Shown here one piece after another: positions 2,912-7,773 of a stretch of DNA of 64,000 nucleotides; the stretch's first letter is position 1, and each line of letters opens with the position of its first letter. This DNA is from Planctomycetota bacterium (GTDB taxonomy: Bacteria; Planctomycetota; UBA8108; SXIK01), in the NCBI GenBank assembly GCA_965223845.1, contig CBDCXR010000004.1:2496001-2560000 (forward strand), in the 5' to 3' direction. The notes beneath the pieces were generated by a model, which saw only the letters and a list, made by a program, of their open reading frames with translations, did no database searches and had not been told where the DNA came from. A program made the translations under genes and the position numbers.

Positions 2912-4126
2912 ATGTCACAGCAGAATCTCTTCGTCTCCTCGCTCATCGGGATTCTCGTCCTCGGTGTCGTCGCACTCGGATTCGTAGCGCTCAGCGACCC
3001 ACCACCACCCGATCCCGAAGCCTACGTCGCACGGACCGATCACGACGATCTCCTCGCCCGAAACATCGAGCTGCAGGACCTTTTCGATCGATCCCAGGAA
3101 GAGAACGCCGAGCTCGCTGAGAAGCGAAAGGAGCTCGAGTCTCGCGTGGCCGAGCTCAAGGCCGAGCTGCACGTCGAACACGAGCGCGCCGCCGCCGAGG
3201 CGGAGGCGGAGCTCGCTGCGAACGCGTCGAACGTCCCGATCGCGTTCGGACAGTGGGCCGAGCTCGAGGGCGTCAAGAACGCGAACTGGCCGGAAATGGG
3301 TGAAGCCATCGGGAACATGAACGCACTCATGGTCGAGCTCGTCGCGAGCATGCAGAACGGTGAAGTTCCGAGCGCCGAGCTGCAGGAGAAGATCCGCGAA
3401 GAGAACAACAAGCTCGTTCGCTACGCAGCTCAAGTGATGGGAAAGATCCCGACGCACTCCCCGATCAACGGCGAGTTCAGTCACCCCATCACGGTCGCGA
3501 ATCTCATCGACTCCGTGTTGGAGGGCACGGAGCTCGCACTGAATGAGGATCAGCGAGCCGCAATCGCCAGCTTCGGCGAAGACTACGACCGCGGCTTCGA
3601 TCGTCTCCAGTCGACGTACTCCGACGAGACCACCCGACTCGAAAAGCTCATCGATGAGCTCGAGCTCAAGCGAGACACGAAGCGCAGCATGGAAAGCGTG
3701 CTCACGCCCGATCAGCGCGAGCTTCTCACGCCCGCTGCAATCCGTGATCGTTCGCAAGTCGACCCTCTCTCCCCCGCGGTGATGACCGCGATGATCGCCG
3801 GTGCCAAGAACGTGAAGTCCGTCGACGAGCTTCGCGGTAGACTACCGGAGTACCTGGGCGAGTGGTTCGGGATCAAGAACGTCGCGCCCGAAACGCTCGG
3901 TGCGATCGCCGACTCTTGGATGGAGGAGATGCGGCCGATTCTGACTCCCGTCGAGAGAGCCACCAAGTTTCTCGAGCTCGACCAGACGATCACCGCGGGA
4001 AGAGCGCAGGTGAACGCGATGAAGCAGCTGCTCAGTCTCCAGGACCTAGACGAAAAGGCGCGAAAGGCAATCCTCAATCACATGGGCTGGCGCGTTCCGC
4101 AGGTCGTGGAAGCCTCCCCCGAATGA
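2912..4126 (+). CDS. Membrane-anchored coiled-coil protein with a ~290-aa helical domain paralogous to the kinase's extracytoplasmic domain
   Basis: N-terminal hydrophobic helix (LFVSSLIGILVLGVVALGFVAL), E/K/A-rich coiled coil, then PIAFG...WRVPQV, which aligns without gaps to kinase nt 6274-7143. Stop overlaps the ECF start (ATGA). Confidence 0.85.
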   Translation: MSQQNLFVSSLIGILVLGVVALGFVALSDPPPPDPEAYVARTDHDDLLARNIELQDLFDRSQEENAELAEKRKELESRVAELKAELHVEHERAAAEAEAELAANASNVPIAFGQWAELEGVKNANWPEMGEAIGNMNALMVELVASMQNGEVPSAELQEKIREENNKLVRYAAQVMGKIPTHSPINGEFSHPITVANLIDSVLEGTELALNEDQRAAIASFGEDYDRGFDRLQSTYSDETTRLEKLIDELELKRDTKRSMESVLTPDQRELLTPAAIRDRSQVDPLSPAVMTAMIAGAKNVKSVDELRGRLPEYLGEWFGIKNVAPETLGAIADSWMEEMRPILTPVERATKFLELDQTITAGRAQVNAMKQLLSLQDLDEKARKAILNHMGWRVPQVVEASPE

Positions 4127-4701
4127 GCGATGTGACGCGCATTTTGAGCGCGATCGAGCAAGGCGACCCGAAGGCTTCGGCAGAGCTTCTTCCGATCGTG
4201 TACGACGAGCTGCGTCGTCTATCCGCTCAGCGCCTCGCCCGAGAAGGATCGCAGACGCTCGAAGCGACCGACCTCGTTCACGAGGCCTACCTTCGACTCG
4301 TCGGCGGAAAGCACACCGGCGAGCAGCCGAGCTGGGATAACCGCGGGCACTTCTTCGCGGCAGCGGCGGAAGCGATGCGGCGCATCCTCATCGACCGAGC
4401 GCGGAAGCGCCAGCGGCTCAAGCGCGGCGGAGGCCGCGAGCAACACTCGCTGAGCGAGAGTGACTTCGCCGTCGAATCGTCCGGAATCGATATCATCGCG
4501 CTCGACGAGGCGCTCTCGCGACTCAGCGAAGAGGACGGCAGGAAAGCGGAATTGGTCAAGCTGCGTTTCTTCGCGGGGCTGACGACCGAAGAAGCCGCGG
4601 CCGTTCTCGACGTTTCGCGAGCGACGGCCGAACGCTACTGGGCGTACTCCCGCGCTTGGCTCTACCACGAGCTCATGAAAGGCGACACGCGCATCGGCTG
4701 A
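4123..4701 (+). CDS. ECF sigma-70 factor (TIGR02999-like, kinase-associated)
   Basis: MSDVTRILSAIEQGD..LLPIVYDELRRL..TLEATDLVHEAYLRL..HFFAAAAEAMRRILID..LVKLRFFAGLT..W.YSRAWL. Real start is ATG 4123, not 3862. Confidence 0.93.
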   Translation: MSDVTRILSAIEQGDPKASAELLPIVYDELRRLSAQRLAREGSQTLEATDLVHEAYLRLVGGKHTGEQPSWDNRGHFFAAAAEAMRRILIDRARKRQRLKRGGGREQHSLSESDFAVESSGIDIIALDEALSRLSEEDGRKAELVKLRFFAGLTTEEAAAVLDVSRATAERYWAYSRAWLYHELMKGDTRIG

Positions 4702-7700: not shown

Positions 7701-7773
7701 AGACCAAGCTCGCGCAATCGCGAGTGAGGTCGAGGAGCTCTTTCCCGCCGAGGAAACGGCAGCGTCTCGATAG
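4765..7773 (+). CDS. Hanks-type Ser/Thr protein kinase with TM helix, coiled coil, novel helical domain and C-terminal TPR-like repeats
   Basis: IGEGGFGVVY, VAMKIIK, HRDIKPNN, DFGIAK, GTPEYMSPE. TM VIAGAMVVGALALGFALALIGFI. TPR-like LGAARYRLGRYREALEVL. Start at ATG 4765 (alternative TTG 4705). Confidence 0.93.
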   Translation: MPEEKRDVEAIFTAALEKPADERSAHLDTACGHDPELRRRVDDLLRAHDEAGSFLNAPTGDVRPAEPVSEGPGTKIGRYKLLQQIGEGGFGVVYMAEQEEPVRRKVAMKIIKLGMDTKQVIARFEAERQALAMMNHPHIAKVLEAGTTPVSPLGGGRPYFVMELVRGISFTEYCDKNNLSTRERLELFLPVCSAIQHAHNKGIIHRDIKPNNVLVTLHDGKPVPIVIDFGIAKATSQRLTEKTLFTEFRQFIGTPEYMSPEQAEMSGLDIDTRTDVYSLGVLLYELLTGTPPFDPKSLREAGYAEITRIIREEDPPTPSTRISVLGSQLPEVARHRKVEPALLSGLLRGDLDWIVMKAMEKDRTRRYETANALARDIEHFLCDEPILASPPSAAYKMAKFVRRNRTPVIAGAMVVGALALGFALALIGFIQASKERDAAEEARREAEEAQATAVAERDRFREVVESLQATLATVDPERMKDLSTSAEDVLALARHVVAGASPMPIAFGKFAELDGFRATNWPHVGRAVLIMNASFVEIAEDQGKGISPKPELTRVIQRENTKLVKLVSGLLGLIPTHAPVNGEYTHPVTLTNLLAAALDLEGLPLSTAQKTRIAREGEEFERLYDRRQKEYGDDAPLIEKIVDELDLKRDCMDRIQEILTPEQRDLVLFPSIRHRISLDPFSPIQMVALLVKPLSYKSKERARSAYPSRVAERFEIDSKLLQDQKQIFDEWIAELEPIVSKPTDENAVLHIDEAIVAGRAHANLIKKLVGVLDLDEGTRREMLEERTWRAPRVTLRSAEMIRESIAALRSCCPQDPRLVKDLADLGRALSVSSRPVDGVAPFVEAIELVEAIGDASIPRDPLRHDLRSLVWETARDPDRTRIEYATALVGAERVLAMKPGSAYSMKVLGAARYRLGRYREALEVLGRADEIHLGRYPGGDPVDVAFIAMCHGKLGNADEARRALGRLRKLMELRQHAESDQARAIASEVEELFPAEETAASR

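Follow-up and report, generated by a model that had tools for sequence, protein, structure and literature searches.

Results

A three-gene locus with two copies of one domain

We analyzed a 64,000-nucleotide stretch of contig CBDCXR010000004.1 from a Planctomycetota bacterium (assembly GCA_965223845.1, positions 2,496,001 to 2,560,000; the whole stretch is referred to below as the window) and describe three consecutive genes in it: gene 1, which encodes a membrane-anchored protein; a gene for an extracytoplasmic function (ECF) sigma factor; and a gene for a Hanks-type Ser/Thr kinase. Gene 1 and the kinase share a domain of ∼300 residues, referred to here as DOM. Our best explanation is that the three genes form one signaling operon of the known kind in which an ECF sigma factor is activated by a Hanks kinase, built around DOM as a Planctomycetota-specific extracytoplasmic module. 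We give a probability of roughly 0.55 to this explanation as a whole, that is, to the operon, the step from kinase to sigma factor and the role of gene 1 as an accessory sensor taken together. At its core, the locus encodes a sigma factor, a kinase and a paralogous free sensor protein, and this core stands. The genes lie in the order given and are tightly coupled, the sigma factor and the kinase belong to recognizable families, the two DOM copies are paralogues, and the layout of transmembrane (TM) helix, coiled coil and DOM runs through the DOM family. On top of this core, a switch from kinase to sigma factor is likely, and a co-sensor role for gene 1 is plausible.

The features of the locus are collected in Table 1. 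An earlier reading of this DNA, made from its letters and open reading frames (ORFs) (the sequence-only reading), had described the three genes in this arrangement, with gene 1 coupled to the ECF gene through an ATGA overlap; we found the ORFs as described, and direct reading confirmed the overlap. The stop codon of gene 1 and the start codon of the sigma gene share 4 nt (CCC GAA TGA is read together with ATG AGC GAT). The gap between the sigma gene and the kinase gene is 3 nt if the kinase starts at TTG 4705, and the alternative ATG 4765 lies 64 nt after the sigma stop. The sequence AAGGGAG is found 7 nt upstream of the gene 1 ATG. A scan of positions 2500-8100 detected no terminator-like site in the plus-strand gaps among the three genes; over the same range it returned zero promoter-like sites and terminator-like sites at chance level. 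A Pfam search found no anti-sigma domain in gene 1 or in the flanking genes, and a single-pass anti-sigma gene is absent from positions 1-13,566, the kinase occupying that place.

Table 1. Features of the three-gene locus, in window positions
Feature	Positions	Strand	Description and basis
Gene 1	2912-4126	+	404 aa; membrane anchor, long helix and ∼300-aa DOM; no cytoplasmic domain; ORF and translation
Gene 1 membrane anchor, residues 7-25	2930-2986	+	Kyte-Doolittle window score 2.62; model helix 4-26
Gene 1 long single helix, putative coiled coil, residues 41-103	3032-3220	+	AlphaFold2 model; coiled-coil Pfam noise matches across the family
DOM, free copy, residues 107-400	3230-4111	+	Match to hidden Markov model (HMM); BLASTP to kinase; 36/37 conserved columns
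ECF sigma gene	4123-4701	+	192 aa; PF07638/TIGR02999, ECF43-like; start overlaps gene 1 stop
Thr49 codon, region 2.2 (E47-A48-T49-D50), presumed phospho-acceptor	4267-4269	+	Set against the published ECF43 motif
Kinase gene, Hanks-type Ser/Thr	4705-7773	+	1022 aa from TTG 4705; alternative in-frame ATG 4765
Kinase TM helix, residues 432-450	5998-6054	+	Sole hydrophobic segment found, score 2.52
DOM, kinase-fused copy, residues 522-815	6268-7149	+	HMM match; AlphaFold2 model; 34/37 conserved columns
Kinase tail, tetratricopeptide repeat (TPR)-like, residues ∼900-990	7402-7674	+	Sub-threshold TPR and ANAPC3 Pfam matches

Gene 1 and the kinase share DOM

BLASTP aligned residues 100-404 of gene 1 with residues 515-819 of the kinase in a single block of 305 residues without gaps, with 119 identities (39%), 181 positives and an E value of 1e-73. 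The shared domain is thus far beyond chance; the gap-free match described by the sequence-only reading held, and all of its quoted peptide strings are present. The residue limits of DOM in Table 1 were set with an HMM built from the family alignment A3. Across 88 sequences of all architectures, 37 columns are conserved in at least 85% of members; gene 1 keeps 36 of them and the kinase 34, and because these columns are retained, neither copy appears degenerate and both look functional.

The sequence-only reading had placed the domain after a TM helix and a coiled coil in both proteins. Each protein indeed has one TM helix, and gene 1 has the long helix in its model; the kinase may have a coiled coil between its TM helix and DOM, judging by a charged stretch alone. 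The orthologues of gene 1 carry Arg or Lys ahead of the helix, and because of the positive-inside rule this suggests an orientation with the N terminus in and the C terminus out. By its anatomy and the ATGA overlap, gene 1 encodes a free, membrane-anchored putative sensor together with the sigma factor, with a predicted location outside the cytoplasm.

The kinase matched Pkinase (PF00069) over residues 99-339 with an E value of 5e-44 and 151 bits, and its catalytic motifs are intact (GEGGFG, VAMK, HRDIKPNN, DFG and GTPEYMSPE). The TPR-like tail is conserved at 38-39% identity in two other loci (L025 and L027). Ahead of the catalytic domain lies an N-terminal stretch of residues 1-95 (4705-4990), which includes EAIFTAALEKPADERSAHLDTACGHDPELRRRVDDLLRAHDEAGSFL. 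This stretch is echoed in the kinase of genome G022 (see below), and the sigma factor may dock there.

The sigma factor is of a kinase-associated type

The sigma factor matched PF07638 over residues 1-184 (E value 2e-57, 194.6 bits against a cut-off of 21.1) and TIGR02999 (E value 7e-60, 202 bits against a cut-off of 126). Going by these two models, from which the label is taken, it is of the kinase-associated ECF type and ECF43-like. Its gene adjoins that of a Ser/Thr kinase and has no co-encoded anti-sigma factor. The genome from which the window comes encodes 15 PF07638 sigma factors.

The string LEATDL, pointed out by the sequence-only reading, is present at residues 46-51. We placed Thr49 in region 2.2 by eye, aligning the flanking LVHEAYLRL with the QATE and QTTA motifs quoted in PMC13147305. 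In the portion of that paper available, the acidic DxxD of region 2.2 is described as usually swapped for uncharged residues in ECF43 members, with Thr conserved in 88% of them (consensus QTTA) and an acidic fourth motif position in 15.8%; EcfK, with QATE, is phosphorylated on Thr T51 and on linker residues, and its T51A variant remains functional (PMC13147305). A Thr occupies the region 2.2 site in all three related kinase-adjacent sigma factors, namely those of the window, L027 (DGTA) and L062 (DPTA). Among the best 120 of 7979 homologues, the three closest sigma orthologues are 72-73% identical to the window's and read Q/E-A-T-D, with the Thr kept. Three of the top-scoring sigma "homologues" (P0168, P0169 and P0175; 263-329 aa) carry the sigma sequence nearly twice in tandem; their contigs measure ∼1.0-1.5 kb, and they more probably stem from chimeric assembly or the collapse of paralogues than represent true double sigma factors.

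DOM is an unnamed family of Planctomycetota

No Pfam or NCBIfam model matches DOM, and the sequence-only reading, which had not recognized the domain as a named family, was right in this respect. In a full search of 1.84 billion cluster representatives, residues 100-404 of gene 1 matched 581 proteins at E ≤ 1e-3, 397 at E ≤ 1e-10 and 131 at E ≤ 1e-30. All 13 DOM loci in GTDB species genomes were in Planctomycetota, and nine of these were sigma-fused. DOM was detected in 16 of the 59 genomes of the window's class, with at most seven matches per genome, and in 58 of 401 sampled genomes of the phylum (E ≤ 1e-20).

Besides the window's three, 164 DOM proteins were sorted by length: 78 have 380-470 aa, 64 have 540-700 aa, four exceed 700 aa and 18 fall outside these ranges. 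In 68 long forms, Pfam models detected sigma-70 region 4_2 (43 proteins), sigma-70 region 2 (40), zf-HC2 (17), FecR (16) and Pkinase (four). DOM thus occurs free, behind an ECF sigma factor (most long forms), behind a zf-HC2/FecR anti-sigma factor and, rarely, behind a kinase. The sequence-only reading had taken the domain as the kinase's own; its commonest fused partner is in fact an ECF sigma factor, followed by anti-sigma factors. One strong hydrophobic helix shortly precedes the coiled coil and DOM in 15 of 16 tested proteins, and none was found in the remaining one, P0022. The domain is marked by a conserved loop, GK(I/L)PTHxxxNGEF(S/T)HP, and by several LxxxQ or LTxxQ motifs; both copies in the window keep the loop in the form GK(I/L)PTHxxxNGE(F/Y)xHP. 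Across the family, DOM has the look of an interchangeable outer part that became connected to each class of ECF control: the sigma tether, the anti-sigma factor and the kinase.

Nineteen of the long forms have neither a sigma nor a kinase part. Two hydrophobic helices were found in 18 of them, and zf-HC2/FecR was confirmed in four. In these two-helix forms, helix 1 follows the anti-sigma domain, and helix 2 directly precedes the coiled coil and DOM. Two of the zf-HC2/FecR-DOM fusions (P0074 and P0088) share a G-T-S-F motif in the FecR part, which we take to resemble the self-cleavage site of FecR-like proteins.

Structure of DOM and its likeness to known folds

AlphaFold2 models were run with the family alignments. 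In the gene 1 model (predicted local distance difference test score, pLDDT, 91.7), the anchor helix 4-26 and the long helix 41-103 are followed by a compact domain of helices and a small sheet; the model of the kinase DOM (residues 520-822) reached a pLDDT of 96.4 and a predicted TM score (pTM) of 0.94. Foldseek against the PDB gave no match at E ≤ 0.001 for either model (best E values 0.27 and 1.0), and VIA-align over 48,161 chains gave nothing at Z ≥ 8. Below that level, all listed matches of the domain-only model named here lay on its residues ∼82-187, with STV (Salmonella VirG-like) as the top row (Z 5.8, 82 aligned residues, root-mean-square deviation 2.9, 20% identity), followed by two Spy entries (Z 4.8, 21% identity) and two CnrXs entries (Z 4.8, 87 residues aligned). 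With the whole gene 1 model, STV was again the top row (Z 7.3) of a list dominated by coiled-coil matches.

At the sequence level, we read all but one of the 25 top families listed in a permissive Pfam tally as coiled-coil or compositional noise; the exception was PF07813 (LTXXQ). It appeared below threshold in six of 79 DOM members (best E value 0.0039); none of the 79 members searched reached its cut-off, and gene 1 had no match even at E 5. A profile search of PDB sequences with alignment A2 returned TM and coiled-coil noise only, NccX aligning to the anchor and coiled coil and not to DOM; the same search with alignment A4 returned sigma factors because sigma-fused rows were in that alignment. 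We take STV to belong with CpxP and Spy. The matches form a coherent, if weak, hint that the core of DOM may be a distant CpxP/Spy/CnrX-like hairpin, and we do not file DOM in that family. Canonical PF07813 proteins were seen in two of the 59 class genomes, both marginal, against 16 of 59 for DOM, which may fill the LTXXQ niche in this class. Prediction of a complex between the kinase DOM and the gene 1 DOM scored 0.00 in two runs made without controls, below the mark of 0.32, and we weigh this result neither for nor against binding.

The two copies are old paralogues

In a FastTree phylogeny of 170 DOM segments, the eight kinase-fused domains formed one clade (support 99) and gene 1 fell within a clade of ten free proteins (support 99). 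A quick IQ-TREE run on 48 rows, which omitted 122 of the 170 and kept the neighborhood of the two window copies plus seven outgroup rows, again recovered the kinase clade as monophyletic (seven rows, support 99). Because the kinase-fused domains form a clade of their own, and gene 1 groups with free or sigma-fused forms in two trees, the two DOM copies are, on this phylogenetic evidence, old paralogues that do not share an origin at this locus. Both trees rule out that they stem from a recent local duplication. The sequence-only reading had called the free form a copy of the kinase's own domain; it is not a recent one. On the FastTree phylogeny the label "free" requires 34 changes. In the sections available, PMC7671368 reports that planctomycete ECF sigma genes duplicate and insert beside unrelated genes, yielding varied C-terminal extensions; the frequent switching between free and sigma-fused DOM fits this published duplicate-and-insert idea.

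The arrangement in other genomes

To place the locus among its relatives, we compared it with 16 distinct free-copy loci outside the window, each with at least 2 kb of downstream sequence. With the window included, two of 17 free-copy loci have a free DOM gene followed by a PF07638 sigma gene and then a kinase gene. The second case, L062 (G022:C13, 4171-9180, minus strand; another family), has all three genes on the same strand. Its kinase has a TM helix and TPRs but lacks DOM, and shares 40% identity with the window's kinase over the kinase domain; the free DOM of this locus falls in another DOM clade than gene 1. Because the kinase is only 40% identical and the DOM comes from a different clade, L062 is an independent, non-orthologous instance of the order. 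Two in 17 is, by a rough estimate, unlikely by chance: assuming ∼15 such sigma factors per 8 Mb, a sigma gene would be expected within 1 kb downstream on the same strand at ∼0.1% of loci. Ahead of its PF07638 match, the L062 sigma frame stays open for ∼150 codons and reaches to 35 nt from the stop codon of the DOM gene.

Another locus, L027, is a metagenome contig of 4,022 nt that encodes a sigma factor of the PF07638 type and a DOM-bearing kinase; this kinase has the same TPR tail as the window's and is 81% identical to it in the kinase domain. Close orthologues of gene 1 end in ...PE and, among the matches listed, the closest sigma orthologues begin M-S/N-D; these ends are compatible with a conserved ATGA junction, which is circumstantial evidence.

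Other combinations of the same parts were also observed. At locus L072 of genome G023, a sigma-fused DOM gene is divergent from the PF07638 sigma gene and kinase gene next to it; at L069 of the same genome, a free DOM gene comes directly after a sigma-fused one. The window's own genome holds a second ECF cluster with a third DOM relative (L004:4980-11240, corresponding to G000:C4 ∼3,245,979-3,252,239). Here, a gene for a 1017-aa ECF sigma factor with four CarboxypepD_reg repeats is ATGA-overlapped by that of a divergent, 349-aa free DOM protein without a coiled coil. The next gene encodes an ECF sigma factor of 575 aa, in which a weak hydrophobic stretch and a coiled coil are accompanied by an LxxEQ-rich helical C-terminal part; the DOM HMM did not recognize this part. 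Elsewhere, the neighbors of free copies mostly have no Pfam family and are otherwise unrelated (PriA, PKD/Ig proteins, transglutaminase-like proteins and a dynamin-like GTPase). In family f59 (L107, L109 and L108/L012), the free DOM gene is flanked by conserved genes of ∼250 aa downstream and ∼340 aa upstream, both with no Pfam family; genomes of this family usually carry one fused DOM protein of ∼640 aa at a distant locus, which is sigma-fused in L110 and L111.

Neighboring genes

The genes downstream of the three appear unrelated to the operon. They encode a SASA-family carbohydrate esterase (7896-9113, plus strand), a Cys/Met-metabolism pyridoxal phosphate (PLP) enzyme resembling O-acetylhomoserine sulfhydrylase (9181-10506, minus strand) and a protein of 973 aa that has NPCBM domains and, at its C terminus, a CxxCH heme motif (10645-13566, plus strand). 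Upstream, two ORFs have no Pfam family (2-1969, plus strand, 655 aa; 1977-2678, minus strand, 233 aa); the 233-aa gene is divergent from gene 1, with a spacer of 233 nt.

Discussion

A proposed mechanism

We propose the following course of events. The kinase would be anchored by its one TM helix with the coiled coil, DOM and TPR tail outside the cytoplasm, and this ectodomain would sense an envelope or external cue. The kinase would then autophosphorylate and transfer phosphate to Thr49 in region 2.2 of the sigma factor, perhaps also to Ser residues in the linker between regions 2 and 4. Phosphorylation would strengthen binding of the sigma factor to the beta-prime subunit of RNA polymerase and so turn on the regulon. 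We consider this part of the scheme, from cue to regulon, probable.

For gene 1, we tentatively put forward the role of a membrane-tethered accessory sensor on the outer face. It would be produced in step with the sigma factor by means of the ATGA overlap. It might see the same ligand as the kinase, as suggested by the conserved loop that both copies keep; alternatively, it might bind the kinase ectodomain, at DOM or at the TPRs, and tune kinase activity. If the operon induces itself, feedback through gene 1 would follow. We favor an accessory sensor because the protein is co-translated with the sigma factor, because the conserved loop is kept and because the family has repeatedly been wired to ECF control; our models for such a role are the action of CnrX on CnrY and that of CpxP on CpxA.

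A bolder version, which we regard as unlikely, is that DOM is a distantly CpxP/CnrX-like sensor module of Planctomycetota whose free form acts in trans as an obligatory co-sensor or a feedback inhibitor of the kinase ectodomain. If this were true, gene 1 would be, as far as the available portions of the papers cited here go, the first described case of an accessory sensor protein serving a Hanks kinase that phosphorylates a sigma factor, and the fusion of DOM into the kinase here, as opposed to separate neighbors in G022, would be a Rosetta-stone-like record of the partnership.

Several observations weigh against the operon with a kinase-driven sigma factor and an accessory sensor. Some concern the sigma factor itself. 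The sequence-only reading had pointed to ECF sigma factors that are activated by phosphorylation of a Ser/Thr replacing the acidic motif of region 2. The kinase-associated type and the position of the Thr at the published site agree with this, but the acidic residues are not lost: both outer positions of DxxD are acidic (E47 and D50), and only the third position is Thr. Since E47 and D50 are kept, and since T51A leaves EcfK functional in the part of that report available (PMC13147305), the window's sigma factor may bind core polymerase without phosphorylation, and it may be less phosphorylation-dependent than EcfP. Moreover, none of the five listed sequencing runs is of RNA.

Others concern the partnership of the two DOM copies. 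The sequence-only reading had proposed looking for free and kinase-fused copies that occur together; they were found together in the window alone, and no other kinase-fused DOM was detected in the 59 class genomes or the 401 phylum genomes. In L027, the sole other kinase-fused locus with upstream DNA, the 140 nt preceding the sigma gene encode no DOM C terminus in any frame. At 15 of the 16 free-copy loci outside the window, neither a PF07638 sigma gene nor a kinase gene lies directly downstream. In the IQ-TREE phylogeny, the gene 1 clade joins a mixed set of sigma-fused and free forms (P0012, P0026, P0028, P0025, P0029 and L065; support 93) and not the kinase clade. As the G022 kinase has no DOM, any contact there between free DOM and kinase would not be DOM-DOM; the case suggests that contact need not be of that kind and that the TPR tail of the kinase is an alternative docking site. 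The sequence-only reading had suggested that the free paralogue may be a kinase-less decoy or co-receptor that heterodimerizes with the kinase; such a heterodimer, or co-evolution of the two copies, is not supported by the comparative data obtained.

The remaining points concern DOM as an outer sensor. The STV, Spy and CnrXs Z scores fall in the noise range of the tool for helical models. On a simple reading of the two-helix forms, the DOM of the zf-HC2/FecR fusions would be cytoplasmic, opposite to the kinase-fused, sigma-fused and free forms, and the two TM helices of these fusions lower our confidence in DOM as a sensor that is always outside. It is possible that the second helix is not a stop-transfer signal, that an anti-sigma gene was fused end-to-end with a free DOM gene of different topology or that DOM works on either side of the membrane.

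Other explanations of gene 1

Gene 1 could instead lie on the output side. Co-transcribed with its regulators, it would encode a protein of envelope stress or maintenance, such as a membrane-tethered chaperone of the CpxP/Spy kind, its likeness to the kinase then reflecting only a shared envelope ligand. The weak fold and sequence hints point to Spy, the CpxP family and STV, which are stress-induced periplasmic proteins; 15 of the 16 other free DOM loci are away from sigma and kinase genes, which means that the free form has its own function; and ECF operons are commonly self-induced. The CnrH operon is an example of self-induction in the available text of PMC6851896. Nevertheless, we hold this explanation to be doubtful: translational coupling to a sigma gene is more typical of regulators than of regulon products, the repeated fusion of DOM to sigma factors, anti-sigma factors and kinases argues for a signaling role, and the scan of 2500-8100 gave no usable promoter sites.

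The adjacency could also be a product of gene traffic, a duplicated sigma-kinase pair having landed beside an existing free DOM gene long after the kinase lineage captured its own DOM. The 34 changes for "free" on the DOM tree, the two copies not being sisters and the lack of a free copy directly upstream in L027 would all sit well with this, as would the duplication and insertion of planctomycete ECF sigma genes reported in the accessible part of PMC7671368. Yet the 4-nt overlap suggests that co-expression has been selected for, G022 repeats the gene order with parts that are not orthologous, which is unlikely by chance on our rough estimate, and the orthologue ends are compatible, if circumstantially, with a conserved ATGA junction; we therefore think mere traffic quite unlikely.

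Finally, that gene 1 is the missing anti-sigma factor, tethering the sigma factor at the membrane, is highly improbable: it is a single-pass membrane protein coupled to an ECF sigma gene and has DOM relatives in zf-HC2/FecR anti-sigma factors, but in those fusions the sigma-binding part is a separate N-terminal zf-HC2 module, and gene 1, in which no anti-sigma domain was detected, has only ∼6 residues ahead of its membrane helix and hence nothing cytoplasmic to bind sigma. On this anatomy we rejected it.

Significance

Activation of sigma factors by Ser/Thr kinases is a recently established signaling route. The locus described here is a compact three-gene case, in which a helper with the kinase's own sensor fold would be encoded in step with the sigma factor. 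It also comes with a confident structural model for an unnamed family of 581 cluster representatives, and an outer module common to sigma tethers, anti-sigma factors and kinases lets one ask whether all three read the same signal. If gene 1 has no action on the kinase, the locus would be an ordinary ECF43-like pair with an unannotated sensor domain.

Comparison with known systems

The closest known systems are EcfP/PknT of Vibrio parahaemolyticus and EcfK/PknS of Xanthomonas citri, in which, according to the portions of the reports available, an anti-sigma-less ECF sigma factor of the PF07638/TIGR02999 type is likewise encoded beside a single-pass Ser/Thr kinase (PMC13147305, PMC8999054). As in EcfK, the Thr of region 2.2 has an adjacent acidic residue (EATD here, QATE in EcfK); unlike EcfK, as described there, the window's sigma factor keeps the acidic E47 at the first motif position. 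The kinase ectodomains next to ECF43 sigma factors are very varied in the same account (PMC13147305), and that of the window differs from those of the EcfP and EcfK systems in consisting of DOM and TPRs. The window differs further in its third, coupled gene for a free paralogue of the ectodomain; the accessible text of the EcfK paper contains no such partner (PMC13147305).

A second parallel is CnrYXH of Cupriavidus metallidurans. CnrX, as presented in the available part of PMC6851896, is an N-anchored, all-helical periplasmic sensor whose gene accompanies that of an ECF sigma factor and which signals in trans. The weak structural matches obtained with the core of DOM include CnrXs (Z 4.8 over 87 aligned residues). 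However, CnrX acts on the anti-sigma factor CnrY (PMC6851896), whereas the window has no anti-sigma factor, and the partner of gene 1 would be the kinase. DOM is also three times larger than CnrX, and no sequence relation between them was detected.

Proteins of the CpxP/Spy/ZraP kind (LTXXQ, PF07813) resemble DOM in the helical hairpin modeled over residues ∼82-187 (STV Z 5.8-7.3, Spy Z 4.8) and in LTxxQ-like motifs. CpxP modulates the kinase CpxA from the periplasm. Unlike these proteins, DOM is membrane-tethered, is ∼300 aa long and has additional helices as well as a small sheet; the scores of the fold comparison are within the noise range.

Lastly, most long DOM proteins share their layout of ECF sigma factor, TM helix and outer domain with the tethered sigma/anti-sigma hybrids (IutY of Pseudomonas putida; ECF48/52/53), an architecture that is released by regulated proteolysis in the account given in the available text of PMC8999054. 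This likeness is one of the DOM relatives, whereas the window uses a separate sigma factor and kinase.

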